Shown in pieces: positions 4,715 to 61,454 of a stretch of 64,000 nt of DNA; within the stretch, counting starts at the first letter, position 1; each line of letters opens with the position of its first letter. The stretch comes from an uncultured Gemmatimonadales bacterium. GTDB taxonomy: Bacteria > Gemmatimonadota > Gemmatimonadetes > Gemmatimonadales > GWC2-71-9. The translations under genes were made by a program, and so were the position numbers. The notes under the pieces were generated by a model, which ran no database searches, was not told where the DNA came from, and saw nothing but the letters and a program-made list of their open reading frames with translations. The DNA lies in NCBI GenBank assembly GCA_963796335.1, contig CAWCLG010000006.1, positions 950,939-1,014,938 on the forward strand, given 5' to 3'.

Positions 4715-6243
4715 ATGCCCTCGCTTGCCCGCCTCACGCCGCTCCACGCCTTCATGGTCGCCATGACCCTCGGCGCCTGTGCGGGAACCACCACCCAGCT
4801 CGCTCCCGTGCCTCGCGAAGCCATCGAAGCCGAGGAGGAGAAGCAGCGCGGACTGGCCCTGGAGGACAACGAGCGCCAGCAGGCTCGGCTCGACAGCCTC
4901 GCCTATCCGATCCTTGCCCGCTCGACCTCGCTCTGTCCCGGTGCCACCGGTCCGCTGCTCGGACTGCGCCTGGCCACGATTCACAACTACGAGAAGGAAT
5001 GGCAGCCCGCCGCGGCCCGCGTCCTCGGCGTGAATGACACGCTCACCGTGGTCGGCGTGTTCCTGGCAGCCCCGCCTTCGCGGCCGGCCTCCGGCCCGGC
5101 GACCGGATCATGAGTCTCGGCAACACTGCCATTCCCTCGGGGCCAAAGAGCACCATTGAGTTCGCTAAGGCGCTGGAGGAACTCGCTGAGGTCCACACGA
5201 CCTCCACGACACAGATCTCCTATGTCAGAACCGGGGGTCGCCGTGCATCCGCCCTTACGTTGACTCCGGTCTGTGCCTACGGCACGGTGCTCCTCAATAC
5301 CGGTGAGCTCAATGCTTACGCAGACGGCGAGAGGATCTACCTGACCTCCGCTATGATGCGGTTCACCAGCGACGACGAGCTTCAGGTCGTGATCGCCCAC
5401 GAGCTTGCCCACAACGCCATGAACCACATCAAGGCCAGGAAAAAGAACGCGCTGCTCGGCGGTATCCTCGGCGCCATCGCCGACGTCTTCATGGCCACGC
5501 AGGGCGTGAACACCGGCGGGTACTACACCTCCCGCTACGCCAGCCTCGGCGCCCAAACCTTCTCCCAGGATTTCGAACGCGAAGCCGACTATGTCGGCAT
5601 GTATGCCCTCGCTCTCGCCGGCGGGCCGCTTGAAACGGCTCCCACGTTCTGGCGTTATATGGCCCAGGCTGACCCGAAGAGCATCCGGCTGGCGTTCACC
5701 CATCCCACGACCGCTGAGCGGTTCGTCCGGATGGAAAGGAGTCTCGCTGAGATCCGTGGCAAGCAGTCGCGACAGGTCGCGCTGCTGCCAGAGATGAAGG
5801 GAGAATCCAGGCCCGATGCTGCCGCCGCGGCTCAGTCGCTGCCTAACGTGTTCGCATCTGCGCCAGCCACCGTTCCGCCGGCTAGGCCTTCCGCGGCGAT
5901 CGCGGCGCCGACTACCCCGACGGTACCCGAGCCAGAGGCGGCGGCGTACGTCGATGGGAGCGAGGATCTGATGTCCTCGAACGAGAAGCTTCGCGAAGCT
6001 GTGGACGAGGCCATTGGGATGGGCATCATCGAGGACGTGCGGGAAGTCGAGCTTGGCCAGCTCAGTGCTATGACAGGTCCTAGGTTCGGGAGCGCCTTTA
6101 CCGACTACTATCTGGCCGGCGTCCTAACGGCCTACCTCGGCATCGGGGAAGCCGGGGCGATCGAGCTCTGGACCGGCCATGAGAAGCTCGGCGTCTACAC
6201 GGCCGGAGGGCTGACACGGGCTCATCCAGTGCCAGATCGATGA
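4715..6243 (+). CDS. M48-family zinc metallopeptidase lipoprotein with a PDZ-like insert, one frameshift at the CC run 5062-5063
   Basis: Lipoprotein signal MPSLARLTPLHAFMVAMTLGAC. The PDZ-like stretch VVGVFPGSPAFAAGLRPGDRIMSLG is restored by adding one C. HELAH (VIAHELAHNAMNH) and the downstream EREADYVG motif are present. This joins ORFs 4613..5113 and 5110..6243. Confidence 0.8.
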
Positions 6244-6699: not shown

Positions 6700-6856
6700 G
6701 TCGCCACTATCGCTGGGCCCCGGCCGCGCTTCTCCTGCTGATGGCCTGCACCGATCCCGGCGGGGCCGCCGATGCCCTACGCGACCTCGGTCTCGCGACC
6801 TTGTGCCCGGGCGGCGCAGTTCGCCACTTTCACCCACGCCTCCAGCTCGGCCGCCC

Positions 6857-7940
6857 ATGAACCCCCCAAGATCCAGCGCTGGATCGACCTCCTCGCCGCC
6901 CTCCTCGCGCCGCCGCTACCCGCGACCGTTCGAGGAGCTGATCCCCGACGTCCCCGCCTACGCCGCCGGCGACCAGTCGCACGAGACCCGCCGCCGGATG
7001 TTCGAGCGCGACAAGGACGAGCTCCGCGCCTTCGGCATCCCGATCGAGACGATCGACGCCGCCGAGCGAGGGCGAGCGCCAGGCTACCGGCTTCGGCCCC
7101 GCGACTTCTATCTGCCGTACCTCACCGCTCCGCGCCGACGGCCACGACCAAGGCGCCCCGGAAGATCGACAAGTACGGCTACGGCTCGCTCCCGACGCTC
7201 ACCTTCGAGCCCGAGGAGCTGGCCGCGATCGCCGAGGCCGCGGCGCGGGTCCGCGAGCTCGGCGACCCGCTGCTCGCCGAGCACGCCGAGTCGGCGATGC
7301 GGAAGCTGGCGTGCGATCTGCCGATGGACGCCGGCGACGCGCGCCGACGCCACGGGTGTCGCGCCCGCGCGGCCGCAGGCCGGCGCCGGAGGTGTTCGCC
7401 GGCGCTCGGCGAGGCGCTCGCAGCGGCCGGAAGCGGGTCACCTTCAGCTACCACACGATGGGGAGCGACGCCGACGGCCGAGCGCACCGTCGAGCCGTTC
7501 GGGCTCTTCTTCCTCAACCAGCACTGGTATCTGGCCGCGCGGCGCGCAGGGCGAGAGGCCGGTCAAGAACTACCGGCTGAGCCGGATCACCGACGCCGAG
7601 GTGAACGCGCGCCAGCCCGGCACCCCCGACTACGAGATCCCCGCCGGCTTCGACCTCCAGCGAGCACGCCCGCTCGCGCCAGGCCTGGGAGCTGGGCGAC
7701 GGCGACGCGGTCGACGGCCGTCGTCGCGCTCCGCAGCGCCGTCCGGCGCCGCCGCCGCCGCCGCACCGGCTGGGCGAGGCGGTCGAGGGCGACGCGCACC
7801 TGCCGCCGCTTCCGCGTCCGCCGGCGTGGACGCCTTCGCCCGCTGGCTCCTCTCCTTCGCCGGCGACCTCGACCCGGTCTCGCCCGCCGGCGTCGTGGAG
7901 GAATACCGCGGCCTGGTCCGCGAGACCCTCGCCACCACCA
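6857..7940 (+). pseudogene. WYL-domain transcriptional regulator (PafB/PafC-like), at least 6 frame changes
   Basis: ATG 6857 is followed by a C6 run (6862-6867). Segments in alternating frames read KIQRWIDLLAALL, RRYPRPFEELIPDVPAY...FERDKDELRAFGIPIE, YGSLPTLTFEPEELAAIAEAAARVRELGDPLL, RKRVTFSYHTMGSDADG, ERTVEPFGLFFLNQHWYLAAR, VKNYRLSRITDAEV and FARWLLSFAGDLDPVSPAGVVEEYRGLVRETL. Confidence 0.65.
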
Positions 7941-7944
7941 CTCC

Positions 7945-8914
7945 GCCTGACCGCCGACCGCCGCCGCAGCCAGCTCCGCGCGCGATCCTCCACCTCATCC
8001 CCCAGCTGGCCGACGGCGAGCCGCACTCGCTCGCCGAGGTCGCGCGCGAAGGCGGGCGTGGACCGAGCAGACGCGTGCTGCGCGACATCCAGTCGATCTC
8101 GCGAGCGGTTCGAGGCGCCGGGCGGCTTCGTCGAGGGGCTCCAGATCTACCTCGACGCCGACGGGCGTCTCGGTCCACTCGAACCACTTGCTCCGGCCGA
8201 TGCGGCTCACCCGCGGCGAGCTGCTGCGCGCTCGAGCTGGGGCTCACGATGCTCCGCCGGGAGCGTCCGCCGGAGGAGCACGGCGCGATCGACGCGCCGC
8301 TCGAGCGGCTTGCGGGAGGCGATCATCAGGCTGCCCGCGGAGGACGTCGGCGACGCGTTCAGCGCCTCGGCTGCCGGTTCCTCCGGGCGCCTGGATCATC
8401 TCCGGGCCATCCGCGAGGCCCAGCGCGAGCACCGGAAGGTGCGGCTCCACTATCGTCGAAGGGAACGAGCAGGAGGTCGTCGCACCGGATCATCTGCCCC
8501 CACGCGATCGTCTTCGCCACGGGATGTGGTTACGTGGTCGCCCACTGCGAGAGCAACGACGGGGTCCGGTTCTTCCGGCTCGACCGGATGGAGGACGTGC
8601 AGCCGCTGGAGGTCCGGTTTCAGCCTAGCCTCAGCCGGCGGTGGACGCCATCGTGCGGGACGGCCGATGCGTTTCAATCCGATGAGGCCGAGAAGCTGAC
8701 GATCAGGTACTCGCCACGGATCGCGCGCTGGATCGCGGAGCGGGAAGGGAAGACACTGGCGGCCGACGGCTCGCTGACGCTGGAACACCAGTTGGCGGAT
8801 ACCGATTGGGCCGTGCGGCACGTGCTCCAGTACGGACCTGATGCTGAGGTGATAGAGCCGGCGAGCGTCCGCCAGGCTGTGGTCGCACGGCTGAGGCAGA
8901 TCCGGAGCGGCTAA
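7945..8914 (+). pseudogene. second WYL-domain regulator (PafC-like partner), at least 5 frame changes
   Basis: Segments in alternating frames read ILHLIPQLADGEPHSLAEVAREGG, VLRDIQSIS, FEAPGGFVEGLQIYLDADGRL, LLRPMRLTRGELLRA, REAIIRLPAEDV...HLRAIREAQREHRKVRLHYRR and IICPHAIVFATGCGYVVAHCESNDGVRFFRLDRMEDVQPLEVRF. The last ~130 aa are clean and end at the stop 8912-8914. Confidence 0.65.
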
Positions 8915-9720: not shown

Positions 9721-10284
9721 ATGGCCATGCCGAACACGCTCTCGCCGATCTACTGGACCGCTGACATGGCGCGCAGCCTGCCCGACGACGGCAAGCGCTA
9801 CGAAGTGGTCCACGGCGAGTTGCTGGTGACGCCCGCGCCGCGGCTGTGGCATCAGCGGCTCGTGGTTCGCCTGGCCTTCGCTCTCCAGCAGTACCTCACT
9901 CAGCGGCCCGGATGTGGCGAGATTCTCATTGCCCCTGCCGACATCTCCTGGGGAGAGGATGTGCTGGTCCAGCCGGATGTCTTCGTGGTGCCCGTGATGC
10001 AGACGCGCGCCGGAGAGTGGGATGCGATCCGAAACCTGTTGCTGGTGGCGGAGGTGCTGAGCCCCTCCACCTCCCGCCACGACCGGTTCACCAAGCGGCG
10101 GCGGTACCAGGAGGCAGGCGTACCGCTGTACTGGATCGTGGACGGCGAGGCGAGGCAGGCAGAGATCTGGACGCCGGATGCTGTCTTTCCTCGAATCGAG
10201 CGCCACCGCCTGGTGTGGCATCCGGAAGTGCCCGGCGCGCCTTTCACCCTCTCACTCAAGGAGTTGTTCAGGCCCGTGGAGTGA
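9721..10284 (+). CDS. Uma2-family endonuclease, tandem paralog
   Basis: MAMPNTLSPIYWTADMARSLPDDGKRYEVVHGELLVTPAP...LLVAEVLSPSTSRHDRFTKRRRYQEAGVPLYWIVD. It has the same architecture and the same 5' leader as 9027..9575. Confidence 0.85.
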   Translation: MAMPNTLSPIYWTADMARSLPDDGKRYEVVHGELLVTPAPRLWHQRLVVRLAFALQQYLTQRPGCGEILIAPADISWGEDVLVQPDVFVVPVMQTRAGEWDAIRNLLLVAEVLSPSTSRHDRFTKRRRYQEAGVPLYWIVDGEARQAEIWTPDAVFPRIERHRLVWHPEVPGAPFTLSLKELFRPVE

Positions 10285-10316: not shown

Positions 10317-11453
10317 TCAAGGGTGCAGCGGAGTTTCATCGAACAGATCCCTCGGCCTCAGGTCAAACCCTCCCCACATCAGCAACGCCACCCCGTTCCA
10401 GAACCCACTCCTCTCGATCCCATCCTCGCTTCGGGGCAGGTGGTGCACCGGCGAGATGTGCCAGAGCACCACGTCGGCGTCGGTGACGGTCTCCGCGTTC
10501 GAGACGTACGCCGGGAGCTGGTGGTAGAACAGATCCGCGGGATGATATCTCGTCACCCAGAAGTCGGCCTTGGTGAAGGCTTCATCGTGACGGGCCGTGC
10601 CTTGGCGCAACGGGATCAGGTCGTAGGCGATCGGATGCCCCTGGGCGTTCTGCATCCCCAGGTCCTGCACCCGCACCTGGGTGAACTGCGGATCGACCCA
10701 CACGGCTGAGCCCTCTTTGCCGCCGTGGAACGGGGCCGCGGTGTCGATCGCCTGGAGCGGATCACCCAGGGCAGGCTCCAGGTGGCGGACCAGCACCGCC
10801 GCATCGCGGGAGAACCCGTTGAGGTCGACGTCCAGCCGCCAGAGCGCGTTATGCATGTGGGCCACGGTCTCCATCCCCGGCAGGTTCCGGGCGGTGGCCC
10901 CGATCCGAAACGCGACCGTGCCGTCGTCTCGGAAACCGTACTGCATCACGTAGTTGTAGTTCGCCGCGTCCAGCGTCCCCCACAGCACCAGCTCCTGTCC
11001 CCGGCGCACGGCCGTGTCGTCCTTCCAGAGCGGGCCGTAGTCCCGCACTTCCTTGACCACCCGGGGCGGACTGCCCAGGAGCGTGCCGCAGCAGCCGGCA
11101 TCGGCGGGCGTCGCTTCGACCAGGTCGAACCCGAACGAGGTCAGGTCGTAGTAGCGGGGAGAGCCGACGTGGTACGGGACGAACAGCTCGGCGACGCGCG
11201 CGTCCCAGATCACCCGCATCCACGCCGAGGCCGGTGACCGCCGGAACCAGGCGCCGGTGATGTACAGGCCTTTGCCGGGTTCCGAAGCCCAGCTGACACG
11301 CCATGCCGTCTCCATGGTCCCGCCGGCAGGGAACTCCTGCACCACTTCATTGGGGGGTGTGTTCGAGGGTTGGGCCGTGAACCGCTGGCAGCAGCGACGA
11401 GCGCAGCCGGAGGCGGCGAATGCGAGGAGCAAAGCCAGGATGGCGGTACGCAT
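10317..11453 (-). CDS. copper amine oxidase catalytic-domain-like lipoprotein
   Basis: Lipobox MRTAILALLLAFAASGC. AANYNYVMQYGFRDDGTVAFRIGATA matches the TPQ site (T-x-x-N-Y-D/E-Y). VAHMHNALWRLDVDLNG matches the HxH copper ligands. VVLWHISPVHHLPRSED matches the third-His region. Confidence 0.8.
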   Translation of the reverse strand: MRTAILALLLAFAASGCARRCCQRFTAQPSNTPPNEVVQEFPAGGTMETAWRVSWASEPGKGLYITGAWFRRSPASAWMRVIWDARVAELFVPYHVGSPRYYDLTSFGFDLVEATPADAGCCGTLLGSPPRVVKEVRDYGPLWKDDTAVRRGQELVLWGTLDAANYNYVMQYGFRDDGTVAFRIGATARNLPGMETVAHMHNALWRLDVDLNGFSRDAAVLVRHLEPALGDPLQAIDTAAPFHGGKEGSAVWVDPQFTQVRVQDLGMQNAQGHPIAYDLIPLRQGTARHDEAFTKADFWVTRYHPADLFYHQLPAYVSNAETVTDADVVLWHISPVHHLPRSEDGIERSGFWNGVALLMWGGFDLRPRDLFDETPLHP

Positions 11454-12068: not shown

Positions 12069-12238
12069 GGTGACTCCGGCGTCTGTCAGGGGGCTGACCG
12101 GAGGAGTTTGGGGCCGGGTACAGGGCCGTACTAGGCCCTTTTTGCGACAACAGGGGGCCGAAATGCGTCAACCATGGGATCATCGGCCACTGCGGAGAAG
12201 AGCGCTCAGCCGTTAGGAGACGTGTCGTCCGCGTGGAA

Positions 12239-12267
12239 TTGATGACGGCGGTGGCCGAGCGTATTGT
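12239..12267 (+). promoter_or_regulatory. sigma70-like promoter of DUF1640-like gene copy 1 (TTGATG-N17-TATTGT)
   Basis: TTGATG at 12239-12244, a 17-nt spacer, then TATTGT at 12262-12267. The same block with TATAGT occurs at 22154-22182 upstream of the paralog. Confidence 0.5.
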
Positions 12268-12301
12268 TATCCTATCACCGGTTCAATTCGCGGAGTTTCG
12301 A

Positions 12302-12604
12302 GTGCCGGTGACCGCCAAGCTGTCCAAGCGCTTCTATGACGTCCTAGGCGAGGACGTCGCCAATGAGCTGGTCGACTGGTTCAACGCCGTGGACCTTACC
12401 TACCGTACCGACCTTCGGCAACTAAACGAGCTCAACTTCGCACGCTTCGATGCGAAGCTGGAGCAGCGCATCGCGGAACTGCGTGCTGCGGTCCACGCCG
12501 ACGTCCAGCAGGTCCGCATCGACCTGCTTCGCTGGATGTTCGGCTTCTGGGTCACTACCCTGATCGGCATCGCCGGCCTCCTGATCGCGTTACGCGGGCA
12601 GTAG
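12302..12604 (+). CDS. tail-anchored coiled-coil membrane protein (DUF1640-like), copy 1
   Basis: GTG 12302 follows GGAG. The protein reads VPVTAKLSKRFYDVLGEDVANELVDWFNAVD...coiled coil...LLRWMFGFWVTTLIGIAGLLIALRGQ, ending in a C-terminal TM. By eye it is about 90% nucleotide-identical to 22217..22552. Confidence 0.7.
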   Translation: MPVTAKLSKRFYDVLGEDVANELVDWFNAVDLTYRTDLRQLNELNFARFDAKLEQRIAELRAAVHADVQQVRIDLLRWMFGFWVTTLIGIAGLLIALRGQ

Positions 12605-13534: not shown

Positions 13535-16234
13535 TTACCTCGTGGGTTGAGATGCTGCTTTCGGCCAGTCGGACCCTGGAGCCCGATTCAGGTCGAAGGT
13601 GAACGCAAGGCCGCCGAGAGCGATATGGCTCGCGGGTATCCCTGCGGTGGACAAAGCCATTGAACGAAACTCCGCGGCGGTCTTCGAGTCGCCCAGCCGC
13701 TGGTGAGCTAACGCCACCAGGCACCGGGTCATGATGGCCGGCACTCGGTCCAGGGCCGTGGGATCGTGCTCCCCCTCCCGCGCGCTGTCGCCCAGCAGCT
13801 CGACCACGCGGGACCAGTCGCCCTTGCGCCCCGCCAGGATCGCTTCGATCGCGCGCGGGCCCTGACCTAGCCGCCCCCGGACGGCGGGCGAGAGGGCGTC
13901 GAGCCGCTTCAAGATCGCCGTAGCCTCCATCGTATCGCCCAGGAGCGCCATCCGGAGCCCTCGCTCCGTCACGGCGCCGGGCGCCGAGTCGGACTTCACC
14001 AGGGTTCCCGGGTCGATCCCCACGGCAGGAGTGGCGAACGCGAGGATGGAGCGGGCGCTCTCGTACCAGTATCGGGACGGCGGCGAGGCCTCGCGGGCCT
14101 CGCGACGCAGCAGCGCATCCGCCGCTCTCGGCGACCCCGTCGCCGCCAGCACGGCCACCCTCGCGGTCGTGGCCTCGACCCGGAGCGCCGGCGGTGTGGC
14201 GCTTCCCGCCAGCAGCGCTGCCGCCAAGCTGTCGGCCCCGCGCCAATCCGCTTCCACCAGCCGGAACCGGAGCGACGCATAGTGGGCGTACGCGCCGGTG
14301 AGGTCGCGGGCCTTGGCCCGGGCCCGGTCGAGCTGCCCCAGAGCCAGGAGCATGTCGGTCGCGTTCATGATGGCGGCCTGCGCCTCCCGGGGGCCGAACG
14401 GGCTGTTGTCGGCCGCCCCCTCGAAGTCGTCCAGCGCCGCCTGATACTTCCCCAACAGCGACAGGTAGAACCCTCGGTTGGTCCGTCCCCCGATCGAGCG
14501 CGGAGTCTCCGCCAGGTACCGGTCGTACCATTGGATCGCCTGCGGGATGTCGCGATCGAGCACGTACGCCGCGTCTCCCCGCAGCCGGTACGCCTGGCTG
14601 GTGCTGAGACGCGCCGGCCGTTTCAACGCCTCGAGGTACGCCACCCGCGCCGAGTCGAGGTTGCGCGCTTCCACATGGTTGAGGCCAATCATGGCGTAGG
14701 CTGCCGCGAAGCCGGTGTCGAGCGCGATCGCTTCCTGCAACAGATGGGTGCTGCCGGCCACGTTCCCCTGCTGCTTCTGCCCAACCGCCTCGATGTAGCG
14801 GCGGTACGCCGGCAGGGAAGGGGTGGCGATGTCGAGCAGCACCTGGTTGGCTGTCAGGTCCTCGCGGCGCTCGCCCAGGGACCGCCGCAGGTCGCGGCCG
14901 GCCCGCTCAACCGCGGGCACGAGGCTGTCTCCGCTGGCGGTGACCGTGATCGAGGCCAGGGGATCGCCGTTCTCGACGCCGACCGCCCGCACCTGTACCG
15001 AATACCCCGTCCCTCGCCGGGCGACGGTGCCGCCGATGACGACACGGATCGCGCTTCGGAACGCCAGCTCCCTCGCCAGGTCCGGGTTGACCCGGGTCGA
15101 CTCCGGCAGACCTGCGGCTCGCAGCGTGCCTGCCAGCTGCGATCGCGGCATGGTGGTCAGGTAGCGCGACTGGTTCAGCTCCGTCGTCACCAGCTCCCGC
15201 ACCGCCGTCGCCAGCGTCGGATCGCCCGCCGGGCCATCGAAATCGGAGACCAGCACCCAATCGCGCTCCCGCAGTGGCGCCGGCGATCGCCCAGCCACCG
15301 CCACACCGGCCAGCGCGGCCAGCCCCCCGACGCCCGCCACTGCCAGCCCGGTCCGCCACCATCGCGGCACCAGTCGCCGCCGGCGCCGCCGCTTGGGATC
15401 CTCCAGCGCCTGGAGAAACTCCTCGACCGACGCGAAGCGGTCGTCCGGCAACTTGGCCAGCGCCTGCTCCACGCTCGCCTCGACCGACGCCGGCAGGCCG
15501 GACCGCCGCCGGCGCAGCGGCGCGGGGATGTCCGCGGCGTGTTGCGACAGCACGGCGTGCACCGAGGAACCGTAGAACGGCGGATCGCCCGCCAGCATCT
15601 CGTACATCACGCAGGCCAGGCTGTAGAGATCGCTCCGCGGCCCTACCGTCCCTTTGCCCCAGGCCTGCTCCGGACTCATGTACTGCGGCGTGCCGACCGC
15701 CACGCCCGACTGGGTCAGCCGGCTCGCGCCGGGCTCCTCCAGCGCGAGGGCCAGCCCGAAGTCGGCGACCAGCGCGTGATCTCCCTGGAGCAGGATGTTC
15801 TCCGGCTTCACGTCGCGGTGGACCACACCCTGGCCGTGGGCATGGGCCAGCGCGGCCCCCACGTCCCGGACGATCCGGAGCGCTTCCGCGACCGGCAGCG
15901 GACCGGTCCGCTCCAGCCGCTGGCGCAGGGTCTCGCCCTCGACGAACGGCATCGTGAAGTAGAGGAGCCCGTCGGCTTCGCCCGAGTCGTGGACCGGCAG
16001 GATGCAGGGATGGTGCAGGCGGGCGGCGGTGCGGATCTCCCGGAGGAACCGGTCGGCCCCGACGACCAGCGCGATCTCCGGCCGGAGCGCCTTGAGGGCG
16101 ACCAGCCGGTCGTGCTTCAGGTCCCGGGCCAGATAGACCGTAGCGGTGGCCCCGGCCCCGAGCTGCCGCTCGATGCGGAATTCGCCCGAGACCGCCGGAG
16201 CCAGTCGCTCCAGCAGGCTTGTCGGCACCAACAC
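13535..16234 (-). CDS. Ser/Thr protein kinase with TM, periplasmic module and long TPR region
   Basis: Kinase motifs GAGATATVY, VALK, HRDVKPEN, DFG and GTPQYMSPEQ are present. TM segment WWRTGLAVAGVGGLAALAGVAVAG. TPR-like repeats run to the C-terminus. The start is placed at the GTG/TTG cluster at 16228-16234; the longer track ORF (to 16477) would overlap the divergent gene. Confidence 0.9.
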   Translation of the reverse strand: MLVPTSLLERLAPAVSGEFRIERQLGAGATATVYLARDLKHDRLVALKALRPEIALVVGADRFLREIRTAARLHHPCILPVHDSGEADGLLYFTMPFVEGETLRQRLERTGPLPVAEALRIVRDVGAALAHAHGQGVVHRDVKPENILLQGDHALVADFGLALALEEPGASRLTQSGVAVGTPQYMSPEQAWGKGTVGPRSDLYSLACVMYEMLAGDPPFYGSSVHAVLSQHAADIPAPLRRRRSGLPASVEASVEQALAKLPDDRFASVEEFLQALEDPKRRRRRRLVPRWWRTGLAVAGVGGLAALAGVAVAGRSPAPLRERDWVLVSDFDGPAGDPTLATAVRELVTTELNQSRYLTTMPRSQLAGTLRAAGLPESTRVNPDLARELAFRSAIRVVIGGTVARRGTGYSVQVRAVGVENGDPLASITVTASGDSLVPAVERAGRDLRRSLGERREDLTANQVLLDIATPSLPAYRRYIEAVGQKQQGNVAGSTHLLQEAIALDTGFAAAYAMIGLNHVEARNLDSARVAYLEALKRPARLSTSQAYRLRGDAAYVLDRDIPQAIQWYDRYLAETPRSIGGRTNRGFYLSLLGKYQAALDDFEGAADNSPFGPREAQAAIMNATDMLLALGQLDRARAKARDLTGAYAHYASLRFRLVEADWRGADSLAAALLAGSATPPALRVEATTARVAVLAATGSPRAADALLRREAREASPPSRYWYESARSILAFATPAVGIDPGTLVKSDSAPGAVTERGLRMALLGDTMEATAILKRLDALSPAVRGRLGQGPRAIEAILAGRKGDWSRVVELLGDSAREGEHDPTALDRVPAIMTRCLVALAHQRLGDSKTAAEFRSMALSTAGIPASHIALGGLAFTFDLNRAPGSDWPKAASQPTR

Positions 16235-16340
16235 TCCGTGACGGAAGAGGTTCGGTGATGCTAGCACCCGGGTGGGAGCCGGACAAGGATACCAGCGCTC
16301 CGGCGGCCGTTCTATGTTCCGTCTCCCCACTGGAGACGGC

Positions 16341-17951
16341 ATGCTCCGATTGACCACGTTCGGCGGGGTGGAGCTCCGCGAAGACGGGGCCCCCCACCTC
16401 GGCGCCGCGACCCAGCGCCGCCGCCTCGCGCTCCTCGTCCTGCTCGGCAGCGCTCGCGCGCCGGTGGCGCGGGACAAGCTGGTCGCCTGGCTCTGGCCCG
16501 ACCATCCGTCCGAGCAGGCCCGTCACTCCCTCCGCCAGGCACTGCACACCCTCCAGCGGTCGCTGCCCGGCGTGGTGCTGGTCAGCGGTGAGAACCTGGC
16601 GCTCGATCCCGCGCGCATCGCCACCGACGTGGGAGAGCTGGAGGACGCGGCGTTGGCCGGGACGGAGGACGCGATCGTCACGCTGTACCGGGGGCCGTTC
16701 CTCGACGGGTTCTTCCTGAACGACGCGCCGGCCTTCGAGCGGTGGGCCGATGGCCAGCGGGTCCGCTACGCCGGCCTCTTCACCGCGGCCCTGGAGTCGG
16801 TGGCCGGGCGCGCCGGCCGCGCCGGCAATCATGTCGAGGCGATCGGATGGTGGCGCCGGCTCACCGGCGAGGACAGCCTGAACGCCCGCTACGCCCTCGG
16901 CCTCATGCGAGCCCTTGCCGACGCTCAGGACCGCGCCGGCGCCCTCCGCTATGCGGGAGTCTATGCGGGGATGATGCGGCAGGAGCTGGGAGCCGCGGTG
17001 GATCCGGCCGTCGAGGCGTTCGCCCGCCGGCTCCGCGAGGCCGAGCCCGAGAGCGCGGAGGCCTCGACTCCGGCGCCGCTGGTCCAGACGCGGGAGCGAG
17101 CCCGGCATCGCCAGCGAACCTGGCTCGAGCGCACCTTCGCCGACCGCTACCTGCTGGCCCCGTCGTCTTCCGGGGGCACCGCCGTGGTTTCCTACCGGGC
17201 GCGACGGCTCGAGGCCGGGGACGAGGTGGAGATTCACCTGCTCGATCCCGGGCTGTCCGTCGCGGCCGATCCCGACCGGCTGCTGGCCTCCCTCGAACGA
17301 GTCGCCCAGATGCGCGCGCCGCGGATGGGACCGCTGCTCGAGGTCGGCAGTGCCGACGGCGTGGTCTACTATGTGACGTCGCGCCCGCCGGGGGAGACGT
17401 TGCGCGAGAAGCTCGGTCGAGAGCGGCAGCTGCCGTTGCCGGAGGCGGTCGCCATCACCGATGGGATCGGGGAGGCACTGGAGGCGGCCCACGCTGGGGG
17501 CGTCCGGCACGGGGACCTGCGGCCGCGGCACGTGCACGTGAATGACGGAGACGTCGTCGTGGCCGGCTTCGGGATCGCGGACGCCTTGCTCGACGCGACC
17601 CGGTCCGACCGGTCGTCCGCCATGCTCCGGTTCGGGTCGCCAGCCTATCAGAGTCCGGAACAGCTCGCGGGCGACCCACGCCTTGACGAGCGGTCCGACC
17701 TCTACAGCCTGGGCTGCATTCTTTTTGAGATGCTGGCCGGCGAGGTGCCGTTCGCCAGCGCCGACCGGCCGGCCCTGATCCACGGCAAGCTCACCGGCGG
17801 CGCCGCGTCGGTGCGCCCGCGCCGCGATTCCGTGAGCGACGCGCTCGACCAGGTCGTGAGCCGCTGCCTGGCCCGCTCTCCGGCCGACCGGTTTCCCTCC
17901 GCCACCGCTCTCCGCGCCGCGCTGCATGCCGCCACCCATCTCCCGGCCTGA
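16341..17951 (+). CDS. SARP (winged helix + BTAD) regulator fused to a degenerate kinase-like (pseudokinase) domain
   Basis: The N-terminal part reads MLRLTTFGGVELRE...QRRRLALLVLL...LYRGPFLDGFFLNDAPAFERW...YALGLMRAL. In the C-terminal domain the beta3 Lys position is VEIHLL, the catalytic loop is HGDLRPRHV and DFG is replaced by GFG. SPAYQSPEQ and DLYSLGCILFEML are retained. An alternative ATG lies at 16314. Confidence 0.85.
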   Translation: MLRLTTFGGVELREDGAPHLGAATQRRRLALLVLLGSARAPVARDKLVAWLWPDHPSEQARHSLRQALHTLQRSLPGVVLVSGENLALDPARIATDVGELEDAALAGTEDAIVTLYRGPFLDGFFLNDAPAFERWADGQRVRYAGLFTAALESVAGRAGRAGNHVEAIGWWRRLTGEDSLNARYALGLMRALADAQDRAGALRYAGVYAGMMRQELGAAVDPAVEAFARRLREAEPESAEASTPAPLVQTRERARHRQRTWLERTFADRYLLAPSSSGGTAVVSYRARRLEAGDEVEIHLLDPGLSVAADPDRLLASLERVAQMRAPRMGPLLEVGSADGVVYYVTSRPPGETLREKLGRERQLPLPEAVAITDGIGEALEAAHAGGVRHGDLRPRHVHVNDGDVVVAGFGIADALLDATRSDRSSAMLRFGSPAYQSPEQLAGDPRLDERSDLYSLGCILFEMLAGEVPFASADRPALIHGKLTGGAASVRPRRDSVSDALDQVVSRCLARSPADRFPSATALRAALHAATHLPA

Positions 17952-17957
17952 AGAGGA

Positions 17958-18542
17958 TCAAAGAGGCTCGATCGTCGTGATCGCCCTGACATCGTTGAAG
18001 CGGAAGTCCGCGCCGACCGACGAGAACAGCATCTCGGTGGTGATGGCCGTGTCGAACCCGATCGAGAACTGAACCCCGACGGAGATGCCGATCGAGTAGA
18101 GAAAGGGCTGTCCCAGCGGGAGCTCCCAGGTGTTCTGCGCCGAGACCCCGCCGCTGTGATCGCCTTTCGCGTTGAGGCTGTCGAACGTCTTGATCCGCTT
18201 GGGCCCGTCGTAGATGTGGACGTTCCGGATCTCCGCGTTGTCGGCGCGGTAGAGCACGAAGACCCGCTCGAGCCTGGGCCGGTTGCCATCCACCAGCACC
18301 GGCGTGGGAATCGCGACGTGAAACCAGGTGAACGCGCCTGGCCGGCCGTTGAACGACGTCCCCCAGCCGACCCGCCTCATATCGTTCACAGCGGTCGGAT
18401 CCTCGAGCTGGAACGCCGTGCCGTGGATCCAGCTGGCGCTGAGCCCTTCCGCTCCCTTGGTCTTGGGCGCCGCGACGTCAGCCAGATAGGTCGCGCCGAG
18501 CAGGCCCATTCCGGCCTGCCCGACCCATGCTCGCCGTTTCAT
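17958..18542 (-). CDS. secreted hypothetical protein (possible Tat signal)
   Basis: ATG 18542 follows GGAGGA. N-terminus MKRRAWVGQAGMGLLGATYLADVAAP. The ORF is intact. Confidence 0.6.
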   Translation of the reverse strand: MKRRAWVGQAGMGLLGATYLADVAAPKTKGAEGLSASWIHGTAFQLEDPTAVNDMRRVGWGTSFNGRPGAFTWFHVAIPTPVLVDGNRPRLERVFVLYRADNAEIRNVHIYDGPKRIKTFDSLNAKGDHSGGVSAQNTWELPLGQPFLYSIGISVGVQFSIGFDTAITTEMLFSSVGADFRFNDVRAITTIEPL

Positions 18543-18708
18543 TTCATCCTCCGTATTGGCAAACCGGCGATTCAAGCCGGTTGATAGGCCCCTTGAGTGC
18601 GTACAGGTTAGGCGGCTGCCGTCATGCCGCTGTCATCAGGCCGTCACCTCGTGTCACGATTCCCATCTTGTGCCGCGCGGGACGGCTCGCCACCTTCAGC
18701 CACCTTCC

Positions 18709-21700
18709 ATGCGGTTTCTCGCTGACGGCACGTTTCGGTATTCCCCCCACGACCTGGTCGCCTTCCTCGACGGCGACTTCGCCGCCTGGTGCGAGCGAAT
18801 GCTCGCTGAGCGCGGGCGCGCCGGGGGCGCCGGCCCCAGCTCGCTCGGCTGGGCCACGCCCGACGAGGGTGACGAGGAGGTCGCCCTGGCCAAACGAAAG
18901 GGCGACGAGCACGAGCAGCGCTATCTCGCCGGCCTCCGCGAGAAGTACCCCAAGCTCCTCGCCCTCGAGCGCGACGACCCCGACGGCCTGGCCAGGACCC
19001 TCGCCGCCATGCAGGCCGGCGATCCCGTCATCTACCAGGGCCACCTGGTGGCCGACGGCTGGGGCGGCTTCCCCGACTTCCTCTTCCGCTGCGAGGGGAA
19101 CGACGGCTGTAAGGGCTGGCATTACACCCCGTGGGACACCAAGCTGGCTCGCAGCGCGAAGCCCGCCTTCCTGGTCCAGCTCTGCGCCTACGCCGACATG
19201 CTCGAGCTGCTGCACGGCCACCTGCCGGGCGAGCTGGTCTTCGTCTTCGGCGGCGGCGAGCAGCGCCCGTATCGCACCCACGACTACTTCCACTACTACC
19301 GCCGGCTCCGCCGTGCGTTCACCGCGTTTCAGAGCGGCTGGAGCGCGGACCGCGCTCCCGAGCCCGGGCTGGACGAGAGCTGGGGTCGCTGGGAGAGGAC
19401 CGCCGAGAAGCTGCTGGAGCAGTCCGATCACCTGAGCCTGGTCGCCAACATCACCCGCGGGCAGGTCGCTCGGCTGAACGAGGCCGGCATCGCCACGCTG
19501 GCCGACCTCGCCTGGTGCGAGCCCGGTAGGCGGGTGTCGAAGGTGTCGGACGAGGTGTTCGAGCGACTCCGCGCCCAGGCCGAGCTCCAGGTCGCCTCCC
19601 GCGATCTCACCGTGCCGCTGTGGCGACTTCGCGAGCTGAGCGCGGACGAGCCGCGCCGCGGGCTCGCCATGCTGCCCGAGCCGTCCGACGGCGACGTCTT
19701 CTTCGACATGGAAGGCTTTCCCTACGCCGAGGGCGGGCTGGAGTACCTCTTCGGCGCTGTGACCGTCGGCGACGACGTGGTCCCTGTGTTCCACGACTGG
19801 TGGGCGCACGATCCGGCTGGGGAGCGCGCGGCATTCGAGGGATTCATCGACTGGCTGGTCGAGCGGCGGCGTCACCATGCCGAGCTCCACGTCTATCACT
19901 ACGCCTCGTACGAGGAGTCGGCGGTCAAGCGCCTGGCCGCCAAGTACGCCACCCGCGAGCTGGAGGTGGATGACCTGCTGCGCGGCGAAGTGTTCGTGGA
20001 TCTCTACAACGTCGTCCGCCAGGGGTTCATCGTCGGTACCACGAGCTACTCGCTGAAGAAGATCGAGCGGCTCTACCAGCAGCAGCGTGAGGGCCAGGTC
20101 GTCACTGCCGGCGGCTCGGTGGTGGAGTACCAGAAGTGGATCGACAGTGGGGAGCCTCGTCGGTGGGTCGCGTCCCCCACGCTGAAGGGAATTCGCGACT
20201 ACAACGAGAAGGACTGCGAGTCGGTCTGGGGGCTCCGGAGCTGGCTGCTGGAGCGGCAGCGGGAGAACGGCATCGCCTACCTCTCGCCGGCGCCCGCTGT
20301 GAAGAGCCCAAGCGGCCCGCGGCGCCAGAGCGGGCGGAGGCCGAGGCGATCGCGGTCCGCCTCCGCGGACGGGCCACCCTCGACACCGGCGACGATGAGC
20401 GATCCCGCCTGGACGAGCTCCTCGGCTGCCTGGTCGAATACCACCGGCGAGAGGATCGACCCGAGTGGTGGGCCCTGTTCGAGCGGCACGACCGGATGAC
20501 GGTCGAGCAGCGGTTCGAGGACGCGGAGTGCCTCGCCGGATTGGTGCGGACCGCCACGCCGCCGGTGGCGATAAAGAAGTCGTGCGGGCTGGAGTACAGC
20601 TTCAATCCGCAGCAGGAGACCAAGCTCCACGCCGGTTCCAAGTGCCAGATCGCGGGCGACAAGAACGCGACCTACGAGATCACCCGGTTGGACGAGGATG
20701 CCGGCCTGGTGGAGATCAAAGTCGGGCCGAGCAAGTCGCCCGACGACCGGATCTGCCTGATCGGCTTCGACCGCTACGACGAGAAGGAGCAGAAGAAGGC
20801 GATTCTGCGATACGCGTCGGCGTGGGAGCGCGGCACCATCCTGTCGCCCGCGGTGGACGACCTGCTGCGCCGCCGGCCGCCCCGGATCCGAGGCCATGCG
20901 GGCGGGCCGCTGGTTCGTGAGGGAGAGGACACGGTCGAGCGCGCCCGCGAGCTGGTCACCCGGCTCGACGGAAGCACGCTCTGCCTCCAGGGGCCGCCGG
21001 GCACAGGGAAGACCTACACCGCGGCCGCGATGATCGTGGCGCTGCTCCGTGAGGGCGCCAAGATCGGCGTCAGCGCCCAGAGCCATAAGGTGATCGGGAA
21101 TGTGCTTAAGGCAGTCGTGGGGGAGATGAAGCGCACGGGCGTCTCCGGCAGCCTCTTCAGGAAGAGCGACGGCGAGGACGATGGGCTGGCGAAGGGTGTG
21201 GTCCGCGAGGTGGGGAACGACGACGTCCTCGCGGCGATCTCCGGTGGCTCGGCAGTCGTCGGCGGCACGTCGTATCTGTTCAGCCGCGAGGAGATGGCCG
21301 GCGCGTTCGACTACCTCTTCATCGACGAAGCCGGCCAGTTCTCCCTCGCCAACGCCGTCGCGGTCGGGCAGGCCGCCCGTAACCTGATCCTGGTGGGCGA
21401 CCAGATGCAGCTCGCGCAGGTGACCAAGGGGGCGCATCCGGGGGACACCGGTCTCTCCTGCCTGGAGTACTACCTCGACGGGAAGGCCACGGTGCCGCCG
21501 GAGCTGGGAATCTTCCTCGAGCGTACGCGACGGATGCACCCTGATGTCTGCAGCTTCATCTCCAAGGCGATCTACGAATCCAGGCTCAGTCCGATTCCGG
21601 AGACGGCGCGGCGCCGCGTGCTTCGCGGTCCTGACACGGTCTTGGTGCCGGCGGAGACCGGGATCGCCTGGGTTCCCGTGGACCACGACGGCCGCACCCA

Positions 21701-22151
21701 GTCGAGCGACGAGGAGTGCGAGCGGATCGTGGCCATCGTCGAGGAGCTGCGGCGGCGGCGGGTGGTGGATAAGGACGGCGTGGAGCGCGCCCTCACGCCC
21801 AATGACATCATCGTGGTGGCCCCGTTCAACCTCCAGGTGCGCTGTCTGCGGCAGCGCCTTGATTCCCGGATCAAGATCGGCTCGGTCGACAAGTTCCAGG
21901 GCCAGGAGGCGCCGGTGGCGATCGTCTCGCTATGCTCCTCCACCCTCGCGGACGCTCCCCGCGGCGCGACGTTCCTGCTGAGCCCCAACCGGCTCAACGT
22001 CGCGATATCACGGGCGCAGGCGCTGGCAATCGTGGTGGGGTGTCCGGAGCTGATGGATGTGCGGTGCCACTCGCTGGAGGAGATGCGGCTGGTGAACCTG
22101 CTCTGTCACCTGGTGGACTACGCTGAGGTAGCGGGTGCCCGGTCTGCGTAG
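18709..22151 (+). CDS. three-domain fusion of a PD-(D/E)xK RecB/Cas4-like nuclease (TM0106-type), an RNase-H-fold exonuclease and an SF1B (Upf1/Dna2-like) helicase; one frameshift near 20300-20315
   Basis: Nuclease motifs GFPDFLF, WDTKLA and VQLCAYADML. Exonuclease motifs DVFFDMEGFP, LHVYHYASYEESAVKRL and SYSLKKIERLY. Helicase motifs GPPGTGKT, FIDEAGQ, LVGDQMQL, RMHPDV, VDKFQGQEAP and LNVAISRAQ. This joins ORFs 18556..20499 and 20136..22151. Confidence 0.85.
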
Positions 22152-22153
22152 AA

Positions 22154-22182
22154 TTGATGACGCTGTCCGCCGAGCGTATAGT
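22154..22182 (+). promoter_or_regulatory. sigma70-like promoter of DUF1640-like gene copy 2 (TTGATG-N17-TATAGT)
   Basis: TTGATG at 22154-22159, a 17-nt spacer, then TATAGT at 22177-22182. It starts 3 bp after the helicase stop codon (22149-22151). Confidence 0.55.
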
Positions 22183-22216
22183 TATCGTATCACCGGTTCC
22201 TTCAGCGGAGTTCTGA

Positions 22217-22552
22217 GTGCCGGTGACCGCCAAGCTGTCCAAGCGCTTCTATGACGTCCTTGGCGAGGACGTCGCCAACGAGCTGGTCGACTGGTTCAAC
22301 GCCGTGGACCTGACCTACCGCACAGACCTACGCGAGCTGAACGAGCTCAACTTCGCGCGCTTCGACGCGAAGCTGGAGCAGCGTATCGCTGAGCTGCGTG
22401 CGGAGTTCCGCACTGAGCTACAGCAGCTCCGCCTCGATTTCCGCAGCGACCTTCAGCGAGTCCGTATCGAGCTGCTTCGCTGGATGTTCGGCTTCTGGGT
22501 CACCACTCTCATCGGTATCGCCGGCCTGCTGATCGCGTTGCGCGGCCAGTAA
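22217..22552 (+). CDS. tail-anchored coiled-coil membrane protein (DUF1640-like), copy 2
   Basis: GTG 22217 follows GGAG. It carries an extra 11-residue coiled-coil unit relative to copy 1 (EFRTELQQLRLDFRSDLQRVRIELLRW versus AVHADVQQVRIDLLRW). The C-terminal TM is identical. Confidence 0.75.
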   Translation: MPVTAKLSKRFYDVLGEDVANELVDWFNAVDLTYRTDLRELNELNFARFDAKLEQRIAELRAEFRTELQQLRLDFRSDLQRVRIELLRWMFGFWVTTLIGIAGLLIALRGQ

Positions 22553-61407: not shown

Positions 61408-61454
61408 CTTGAGCGCAGAGCCAGCAGTGGCCGGGCTCGTCCGGGTCCGGACCC

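Follow-up and report, generated by a model that had tools for sequence, protein, structure and literature searches.

A SARP regulator with a conserved pseudokinase domain, encoded divergently from an active receptor kinase in Gemmatimonadota

Known systems related to the locus

Hanks-type kinases of bacteria are known to reach transcription by three routes, namely FHA domains, cross-talk with response regulators and direct phosphorylation of DNA-binding domains. Here we describe a divergent gene pair in a 64,000-nucleotide stretch of contig CAWCLG010000006.1 (hereafter the window; G+C ~68%), the nearest relatives of which are throughout metagenome-assembled genomes of Gemmatimonadota. One gene encodes a predicted membrane Ser/Thr kinase, called the partner, and the other encodes a SARP-type regulator joined to a kinase-fold domain, called the fusion. 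A first-pass annotation, made from the letters of the window, had described two divergent genes here and proposed that the membrane kinase may dock on or phosphorylate the fusion and so switch transcription directly. Both open reading frames (ORFs) are indeed present, and the gap between them is 106 bp. All coordinates are collected in Table 1.

In Mycobacterium tuberculosis, the genes embR and pknH are adjacent. PknH phosphorylates the SARP EmbR, for which the C-terminal FHA domain of EmbR is needed, and phosphorylation stimulates promoter binding (PMC4601284). The locus resembles this system in that a SARP with a C-terminal domain of Ser/Thr-kinase signalling is found with a single-pass membrane receptor kinase, and the N-terminal 235 amino acids (aa) of the fusion match the fold of EmbR (2fez/2ff4, E ~1e-9, template-modelling score (TM) 0.66-0.68). 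It differs in that the C-terminal domain is an FHA domain in EmbR and a kinase-fold pseudokinase here, and in the phylum, Actinobacteria as against Gemmatimonadota. No FHA domain was found among the Pfam matches of the fusion at E <= 0.01, so that docking would take place between two kinase domains instead of between a phosphothreonine and an FHA domain. The route without an FHA intermediary that the first-pass annotation had put forward is therefore a variation on the PknH-EmbR theme, not a new principle.

In Streptomyces, the SARP AfsR is phosphorylated by the Hanks-type kinase AfsK. The fusion shares with AfsR, whose structure has been reported (PMC11301090), the fold of the SARP module (8k60/8hvr), and it too would be a SARP under a Hanks-type kinase. 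AfsR carries an NB-ARC/AAA ATPase and TPR repeats where the fusion has a kinase fold. By fold and domains the fusion is thus a SARP, and it is neither of the EmbR type (no FHA) nor of the AfsR type (no ATPase).

Among pseudokinases, MviN (ActPs3) of M. tuberculosis does not bind ATP, is a substrate of PknB and forms back-to-back dimers (PMC12599244). Like MviN, the fusion joins a PknB-like pseudokinase domain to an effector domain. Unlike the fusion, MviN is a membrane flippase-like protein, and its family has an activation-loop deletion of ~40 residues and no HRD Asp; the fusion has kept the activation loop and the catalytic Asp, and its output is a DNA-binding domain. A similar logic is known from MLKL, in which the activation loop of a pseudokinase is phosphorylated by RIPK3 and the effector is held or released. 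The likeness is one of logic only: an N-terminal effector, a C-terminal pseudokinase switch and a partner kinase of which it is the substrate. The MLKL pseudokinase was among the sequence matches of the fusion (6vbz, E 4e-15), as were many other kinases, and this match reflects generic kinase-fold similarity with no specific relationship.

Of the 42 families that the two latest surveys of bacterial Ser/Thr kinases distinguish, seven are pseudokinase families (ActPs1-3, GLW, CP1, DYD and DLHK). The centre of their distribution lies in Actinobacteria, Proteobacteria, Firmicutes, Cyanobacteria and Myxococcota. These surveys make no mention of BTAD, SARP or Gemmatimonadota. Their published hallmarks include GLW in place of HRD, the activation-loop deletion of ActPs3, linkage to COG3899 in CP1, and in DLHK a retained catalytic-loop Asn with helicase/DNA2 domains. 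By these descriptions the fusion is set apart from all seven families, having HGD and not GLW, a full activation segment and His for the catalytic-loop Asn, and occurring in Gemmatimonadota and not in the actinobacterial and proteobacterial lineages typical of those families. It apparently belongs to a pseudokinase family not yet described. The first-pass annotation knew of no characterised SARP-pseudokinase fusion, and likewise no description of BTAD/SARP-kinase or -pseudokinase fusions, nor of Gemmatimonadota kinase families, was found in the literature searched, which covered few subscription journals.

The SARP-pseudokinase fusion

The fusion begins with MLRLTTFGG, a start that is kept in its homologues, and no hydrophobic segment or transmembrane helix is predicted anywhere along it. 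The BTAD was recognised by Pfam (PF03704, 34.9 bits with a cut-off of 22.1, E 2.5e-8, aa 107-232), and Trans_reg_C was not significant on the fusion alone (E 0.18) and is annotated in several homologues. A profile of 20 N-terminal regions was searched against the PDB and matched AfsR (E 3e-7, aa 2-236 of the fusion on 45-285 of AfsR) and EmbR (E 5.6e-7, aa 14-262 of EmbR), spanning the whole of the winged helix-turn-helix (wHTH) and BTAD. In an AlphaFold2 model of aa 1-245, with a predicted local distance difference test (pLDDT) of 93.3, an OmpR-type beta-sheet/three-helix/hairpin topology precedes an all-helical domain. The PDB entries that Foldseek returned for this model were only AfsR (8k60, 8hvr) and EmbR (2fez, 2ff4), with E from 4.6e-11 (AfsR, the best) to 5.5e-9 and TM 0.63-0.70; the next match had an E of 9e-3. 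These profile and fold matches mark the N-terminal half as a bona fide SARP module, and from the model its wHTH is predicted to bind DNA. The winged-helix and BTAD assignment of the first-pass annotation holds in both parts, the BTAD by Pfam and the wHTH by the AfsR/EmbR profile and fold, with Trans_reg_C itself falling short.

The C-terminal half has a kinase fold by every approach used. It was matched by Pfam Pkinase (E 3e-22) and, in HMMER, by PknB structures (E 1e-26). In the AlphaFold2 model of the full-length fusion (pLDDT 84.5) it superposes on the kinase domains of PknB, PknA and Stk1, and the best Foldseek matches were PknB kinase domains, with E ~1e-17 and target TM 0.75-0.85. Apart from this domain the fusion contains only the wHTH and the BTAD.

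Alignment to PknB with HMMER bore out every substitution read off in the first pass (VEIHLL, HGDLRPRHV and GFG). The beta3 Lys of the VAIK motif (PknB Lys40) is replaced by His299, and PknB Ala38 by Glu297. HRD has become HGD, in which the catalytic Asp392 is kept; PknB Lys140 corresponds to Arg394 and Asn143 to His397, so that the HRDxKxxN motif is no longer present, and the change of DFG to GFG has removed the Mg2+-binding Asp. The Gly-rich loop is degenerate, its glycines being lost. Family alignments also showed pocket substitutions, with Val25 changed to Ser/Thr, Ala38 to Glu/His/Asp and the gatekeeper Met to Thr. The alphaC Glu is ambiguous, the conserved Glu lying two residues out of register with Glu59. 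A displaced catalytic Lys or Asp, which the first-pass annotation had named as the finding that would make this an atypical active kinase, was not found in the alignments to PknB or within the family, where no displaced Lys was seen in beta2, beta3 or the Gly-rich loop.

By an operational definition, a pseudokinase has lost at least one of the VAIK Lys, the HRD Asp and the DFG Asp (bioRxiv 10.1101/2025.01.12.632604), and the family qualifies because the Lys and the DFG Asp are lost in essentially all of its 120 best homologues. The polar replacements in the adenine pocket make ATP binding unlikely. From its residues, the domain probably cannot catalyse phosphotransfer in the canonical way, and ATP binding is probably absent. 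The earlier description of it as catalytically dead is right as to the beta3 Lys, the loop Asn, the DFG Asp and the Gly-rich loop; it does not extend to the HRD Asp392, which is retained.

The substrate-side elements have fared differently from the catalytic ones. SPAYQSPEQ and the alphaF segment DLYSLGCILFEML are kept, as had been observed in the first pass, the activation segment is intact, and the P+1 motif GxPxYxSPEQ is invariant. A Ser/Thr dyad, Ser425/Ser426 in the fusion, is kept at the position of Thr171/Thr173, the activating threonines of PknB, and 23 of 27 relatives have a Thr at the equivalent of Thr173. The residues corresponding to Arg10 and Asp76 of PknB, which form the salt bridge of its back-to-back dimer, are also kept.

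The partner kinase

The partner was matched by Pfam Pkinase with an E of 6e-44, and the motifs for which it had been called an active kinase are all in place: VALK (aa 45-48), HRDVKPEN (aa 139-146) and DFG (aa 158-160). Its signature at the PknB-equivalent positions, AKEHRDKNDFG, is fully canonical, so that it has every residue expected of an active Hanks kinase, in the Gly-rich loop, the VAIK Lys, the alphaC Glu, HRDxKxxN and DFG. The ORF is open up to 16477 on the minus strand, and the kinase domain starts ~10 residues past a GTG at 16234; this spacing equals that of the orthologue at locus L001, which makes 13535-16234 (899 aa) the sensible extent of the gene.

One transmembrane helix is predicted, in line with the earlier term membrane kinase. 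A poly-Arg stretch, KRRRRRRLVPRWWR, precedes it, and by the positive-inside rule the kinase domain lies on the cytoplasmic side. As predicted from sequence, the partner is thus a receptor kinase that crosses the membrane once, with its kinase domain inside the cell and an outer region of ~580 aa, the presumed sensor. The outer region gave Pfam matches to TPR_9, TPR_16 and TPR_2, all under the curated cut-offs, and resembles part of NCBIfam TIGR04510 (E 2e-34, also under the cut-off). Homologues of this region were found only in the orthologous partner kinases and in long SARP proteins, of which it matches the C-terminal halves. These SARP proteins come from other Gemmatimonadota (L043:9713-12955, L044:10001-12643 and L064:9095-12784; E 2e-23 to 7e-12). 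This distribution suggests one sensor module that is attached to a kinase in some proteins and straight to a SARP in others.

PADLOC models for PD-T4-6 matched both proteins of the pair (E 9e-51 and 8e-86) across the kinase domain alone, and NCBIfam matches to MAD6 and PglW were far under their cut-offs. The defence-model matches are thus confined to the generic kinase domain, and no partner genes of a defence system were identified.

Conservation and origin of the fusion family

A protein search returned more than 1,300 matches, and residues were counted over the best 120 (44-97% identity, 95-100% coverage). All of these are ~540 aa long with BTAD and Pkinase, those with names belong to Gemmatimonadales or Gemmatirosa, and their database names are generic ('protein kinase', 'DNA-binding SARP family transcriptional activator'). 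A fusion confined to this genome, one outcome that would have spoken against the first-pass proposal, is ruled out by this large Gemmatimonadota family. The position of PknB Lys40 is occupied by His in 103 of the 120 and by Lys in none. HGD was found in 109/120 with the equivalent of Asp138 kept in 119/120, Arg stands at Lys140 in 120/120, and His at Asn143 in 109/120. The first position of DFG is Ser in 55, Gly in 54 and Asp in one.

Compared with the relative at L082 (~95% DNA identity), the pseudokinase domain has a Ka/Ks of 0.088 and the SARP domain one of 0.10. The low ratio and the conserved substitutions indicate a family trait and not decay, and a recent decay or pseudogene is ruled out on the same two grounds. 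By these substitution rates, purifying selection on the pseudokinase domain is estimated to be as strong as on the DNA-binding module. Since the replacement residues are themselves conserved, the pocket appears to have been remodelled and not abandoned.

A genome collection was also scanned, yielding 76 Gemmatimonadota loci in which every kinase-like ORF was classed by its PknB-equivalent residues. The classes comprised canonical SARP-kinase fusions, two intermediates and pseudo-fusions. The canonical, presumably active fusions include L022-L031, L051 and L073 (e.g. L022:10001-11569), and in a second protein search with L022 as the query, 112 of 120 (proteins P0121-P0240) were canonical, with AK..HRD[KR]..N..DFG. 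These proteins share with the pseudo-fusions their architecture, a length of ~520 aa and 36-40% full-length identity, and form a sister clade in the tree; they differ in that every catalytic residue is kept and an adjacent kinase is found in only 1/13, the pseudo-fusions being the ones that would need a separate enzyme. Active fusions consist of wHTH, BTAD and kinase, have no transmembrane helix or sensor and usually have no kinase neighbour. As read from their sequences they would be one-protein kinase-transcription factors, and no description of them was found in the literature searched.

The two intermediates (L011:5281-6951 and L033:6669-8324) have the beta3 Lys changed to Arg and DFG to NLG with HRDxKxxN intact, and they group with the active fusions; at L011 an active kinase follows 150 bp downstream. 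Both may represent a stage on the way to a pseudokinase. Neighbour-joining placed the pseudo-fusions together in one clade, apart from the active fusions and the intermediates, and this tree is read most simply as catalysis having been lost once, in an ancestral SARP-kinase fusion.

Association with active kinases across genomes

With adjacency defined as an active kinase gene within 500 bp, an active kinase adjoins 19/24 assessable pseudo-fusions, 1/13 active fusions and 3/34 SARP-only paralogues, and the three paralogues with a kinase neighbour look like frameshifted fusions. The enrichment has a Fisher p of 3e-9, uncorrected for phylogeny and resting effectively on three independent clades. 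The survey that the first pass had suggested thus found the adjacent active kinase strongly enriched in a large family, an outcome in favour of a functional pair. Judged by residues and gene order, fusions that have lost catalysis tend to have an active kinase beside them, and no other observation speaks as strongly for a partnership in function.

Three layouts of kinase and fusion were found (divergent, downstream and upstream), each specific to a clade. The largest clade has the kinase directly downstream of the fusion, whose stop overlaps the start of the kinase as ATGA in 9/12 loci; here the kinase tree mirrors the fusion tree. In the second clade the kinase is a bare soluble domain, encoded on the strand of the fusion and directly upstream of it. 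The window belongs to the third clade, in which the kinase is divergent from the fusion. Its divergent pair recurs in four other genomes (L001, L077, L079 and L080), with a full-length orthologous kinase at 55-59% identity and a fusion at 51-56%, and all four domains diverge at similar rates. In a comparison of the window with these four loci for conserved gene content that could hint at a regulon, the two genes alone were conserved.

The intergenic region

A block with the consensus GACAA[CG]G[ACG]TA[CT]C was found between the divergent genes in four orthologous pairs, those of the window, L001 (~9926-9990), L077 (~5910-5925) and L079 (5900-5925). At L079 the core of the block, ACGACAACGC, is in tandem with a 12-bp period. 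From its recurrence, the block could be a promoter element or a binding site of the regulator, and we regard it as a candidate for either. A scan of the intergenic region of the window for sigma-70-like promoters and terminators found nothing.

A perfect 8-bp inverted repeat, CCGTCTCC-CCACT-GGAGACGG, lies at 16320-16340 directly before the ATG of the fusion and covers the GGAG Shine-Dalgarno sequence. As a regulatory fold this repeat was rejected, folding no better than shuffles (z -1.15) and lacking conservation among the orthologues. In the sister clade with a co-directional kinase (L005, L013, L035, L042 etc.), another, conserved block, AGTAGCCnTTCCCGC-N8-10-GTAAGTTTCCCCCAtCATG, lies in the ~45 bp upstream of the fusion start and ends at the start codon (e.g. 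L042:9955-10000). The TAAGTT in this clade stands just ~12 nt before the ATG, which points to a transcript whose leader is very short or lacking.

Proposed mechanism and alternatives

As the most likely reading we propose, with moderate confidence, that the two genes form a Hanks-type pair of receptor kinase and transcription factor in which the pseudokinase serves as a docking or receiver module. The kept activation segment, P+1 motif, Ser/Thr dyad and Arg10/Asp76 equivalents are what lead us to read the domain in this way. As a receiver or docking module of the SARP regulator, the pseudokinase would pair with the kinase domain of the receptor through the interfaces of PknB-like dimerisation and trans-autophosphorylation. 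The partner would then phosphorylate the retained activation loop, at Ser425/Ser426 here and at the equivalent of PknB Thr173 in most relatives. Phosphorylation, or heterodimerisation, would alter how the SARP oligomerises or how its domains pack, and in this way how it binds promoter DNA and RNA polymerase. In function the pair would correspond to PknH-EmbR or AfsK-AfsR, a pseudokinase having taken the place of the FHA or NB-ARC domain. From the anatomy and the precedents we infer that the two proteins dock, that the fusion is phosphorylated, where this happens and what it does to transcription.

A wider version of this proposal is conceivable, though on balance rather doubtful. Gemmatimonadota would have recast the Hanks fold as a receiver-like domain of transcription factors, giving a phylum-wide, two-component-like class of kinase and SARP-pseudokinase pairs that descend from one-protein ancestors, and the pocket may bind a metal or an anion. 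The pocket, made up of Glu-x-His on beta3, HGD-x-R-x-[KR]-H and Ser/Gly-Phe-Gly, would hold a metal or a small anionic ligand, and the regulator could in this way integrate a cytoplasmic cue with the extracellular signal of the kinase.

Several observations weigh against a kinase-to-fusion pair of this kind. The fusion of the window has Ser-Ser in the dyad and not the Thr of most relatives. SARPs bind direct heptamer repeats with a periodicity of about 11 bp close to the -35 region and activate transcription, and no SARP-like 7-mer direct repeats with a spacing of 10-12 or 21-23 bp were found in the 106-bp intergenic region of the window. The partner kinases of the three layouts fall into three separate kinase clades, with sensors that are different or absent; one ancient, co-evolving partner kinase is thereby ruled out, and the partnership must have been re-established several times or rearranged. 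In the subclade of the window, 5/10 members (L002, L003, L004, L081 and L082) have no kinase in their flanks (~3.6-10 kb per side). One of these, L082, encodes a fusion 97% identical to that of the window, and the 10 kb upstream of it contain no partner kinase. The DNA of L082 is syntenic with the window from 16344 onward (94.7%), and homology stops exactly at codon 2 of the fusion. On the other side of the junction lies an 87-aa truncated amidase fragment (L082:9741-10004), the stop of which overlaps the TTG start of the fusion; the junction reflects either a genuine rearrangement or a chimera in the metagenome assembly. The 64-kb window also holds three active kinases and four SARP modules, and the abundance of kinases and SARP paralogues in the genome raises the background chance of adjacency.

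The alternative that survives best, and that we nevertheless consider unlikely, is that the pseudokinase domain is an autonomous part of the SARP, acting in dimerisation or as a ligand or metal sensor, and that the kinase is a target or a co-regulated gene. The conserved replacements (Glu/His on beta3, HGDxR(K/R)H and the polar pocket) suggest a new binding function, and the domain is still intact in the half of the subclade that lacks a kinase neighbour. SARPs classically activate adjacent genes (PMC10972967), and with the genes divergent, a single intergenic region could serve the autoregulation of both. What such an autonomous domain leaves unexplained is that kinase adjacency tracks the loss of catalysis (19/24 as against 1/13), that ATGA overlaps translationally couple the two ORFs in the largest clade, and that the activation segment is retained together with its Ser/Thr dyad.

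Pseudokinases are also known as activators or scaffolds of active kinases, such as STRAD for LKB1 and HER3 for HER2. A flow of information in the reverse direction, with the pseudokinase as an allosteric activator or scaffold of the neighbouring kinase and the SARP module localising or titrating that kinase, is quite unlikely here. The retained equivalents of the Arg10/Asp76 N-lobe dimer would allow it, and the partners in one clade are bare soluble kinases that have no sensor and would need an activator. A precedent is given by EmbR2, a non-phosphorylatable SARP that modulates PknH by inhibiting it (PMC4601284). Against this, the SARP module is as conserved as the pseudokinase domain and has a complete AfsR/EmbR fold, which points to transcription as the output, and the partner in the window has a large sensor of its own and all the motifs of a self-sufficient receptor kinase.

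Coordination of ATP by basic residues has been proposed for ULK4 and for DLHK-type proteins. It is improbable that the fusion is likewise an atypical active enzyme, one that uses the retained Asp with non-canonical ATP coordination through basic residues or carries out a different reaction. The near-universal conservation of Asp138 and the unusually basic catalytic loop, HGDLRP(K/R)H, would fit such an enzyme, and metal-independent ATP binding has been proposed for some families that have no beta3 Lys (review PMC12599244). These points are opposed by the degenerate Gly-rich loop, by the lack of a displaced Lys in beta2, beta3 or that loop, and by the loss of both the DFG Asp and the catalytic-loop Asn; nucleotide binding is hard to square with a pocket in which Val25 has become Ser/Thr, Ala38 has become Glu and the gatekeeper Met has become Thr.

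Chance adjacency with no functional link, for which the crowding of kinases and SARPs in the window and the kinase-less L082 could be cited, is very improbable and already disfavoured by the comparative data, given the background of 1/13 and 3/34 as against 19/24, the orthologous pair kept in five genomes at 50-60% identity with all other neighbours differing, and the ATGA overlaps of both ORFs in the sister clade.

Features of the locus and its surroundings

Table 1. Positions in the window of the partner kinase gene, the fusion gene and the region between them
Feature	Position	Strand	Remarks
Partner kinase gene	13535-16234	-	899 aa, GTG start at 16234
Partner extracytoplasmic C-terminal region, TPR-like repeats	13538-15289	-	~580 aa
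Partner single predicted transmembrane helix GLAVAGVGGLAALAGVAVAG	15290-15349	-	aa 296-315; Kyte-Doolittle mean 2.04 over 19 residues
Partner cytoplasmic kinase domain (predicted)	15365-16207	-	aa ~10-290
Partner activation loop TQSGVAVGTPQYMSPEQ	15665-15715	-	
Partner DFG	15755-15763	-	
Partner HRDVKPEN	15797-15820	-	
Partner VALK	16091-16102	-	
Divergent intergenic gap	16235-16340	.	106 bp
Block GGACAAGGATACC	~16279-16291	.	recurs in L001, L077, L079
SARP-pseudokinase fusion gene	16341-17951	+	536 aa, ATG at 16341, soluble
OmpR-type wHTH, predicted DNA-binding domain	16341-16625	+	aa 1-95
BTAD, all-helical, TPR-like	16626-17039	+	aa 96-233
Linker to kinase-like N-lobe	17040-17135	+	low-confidence aa 237-245, then long helix aa 246-266 (AlphaFold2)
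Pseudokinase domain	17136-17948	+	aa 266-536
VEIHLL	17226-17243	+	Glu297/His299 at PknB Ala38/Lys40
HGDLRPRHV	17508-17534	+	aa 390-398, on PknB HRDVKPANI
GFG	17565-17573	+	aa 409-411, on DFG
Activation-loop Ser425/Ser426	inside 17610-17627	+	
P+1/APE-like SPAYQSPEQ	17637-17663	+	
AlphaF DLYSLGCILFEML	17697-17735	+	retained

The further SARP-related genes of the window are a BTAD fragment of 260 aa at 1156-1938 (-), a BTAD+TPR protein of 779 aa at 49783-52122 (-) and an AfsR-like BTAD+AAA_16 paralogue, a gene distinct from the fusion, which begins at 61409 (+) and extends past the end of the window at 64000. Two more active kinase+TPR proteins are encoded at 36876-39149 (-) and 57048-59396 (+).

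A small gene is present in two direct copies, at 12227-12603 and 22142-22551, with 80% identity over ~400 bp. Its product has ~120 aa and a C-terminal transmembrane helix, with a weak CCDC90-like match in L082, and the right-hand copy has an in-frame stop close to its 5' end. The two copies bracket a segment of ~9.5 kb that holds a 221-aa ORF, the kinase, the fusion, and the DUF6623 and nuclease-helicase genes. The DUF6623 gene (17958-18575, -) is convergent with the fusion on its downstream side. A nuclease ORF of the RNase_H_2 superfamily (RecB-like; 18556-20499, +) overlaps an ORF for an SF1 helicase with AAA_11/AAA_12 (20136-22151, +). The DUF6623, nuclease and helicase ORFs (17958-22151) are syntenic in L082.

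A few genes past the partner kinase and on the same strand lies a gene with a copper amine oxidase-like domain (10317-11453, -), and tyrosinase genes are found in the corresponding setting, a few genes past the orthologous kinase and on its strand, at L077:1325-2263 and L079:1611-2585. The copper amine oxidase-like and tyrosinase genes are not homologous to each other, and their occurrence may be a coincidence. A 703-aa ORF at 6803-8914 (+) has C-terminal WYL and WCX domains, a type of regulator often tied to DNA-damage or defence loci.

Significance

The locus presents a disarmed kinase-fold domain that is carried by a transcription factor itself and kept beside an active kinase. If the fusion is indeed the receiver of its partner, docking through a pseudokinase would be a principle new to bacterial Ser/Thr signalling. 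The family would be an addition to the seven described bacterial pseudokinase families, with an output, DNA binding, that can be assayed. It would also offer a natural series, from the active fusion through an intermediate (Lys to Arg, DFG to NLG) to a pseudokinase with a partner, in which to study how pseudokinases emerge and come to have partners. For the poorly studied, kinase-rich Gemmatimonadota, such a pair would help to explain how genes are regulated.

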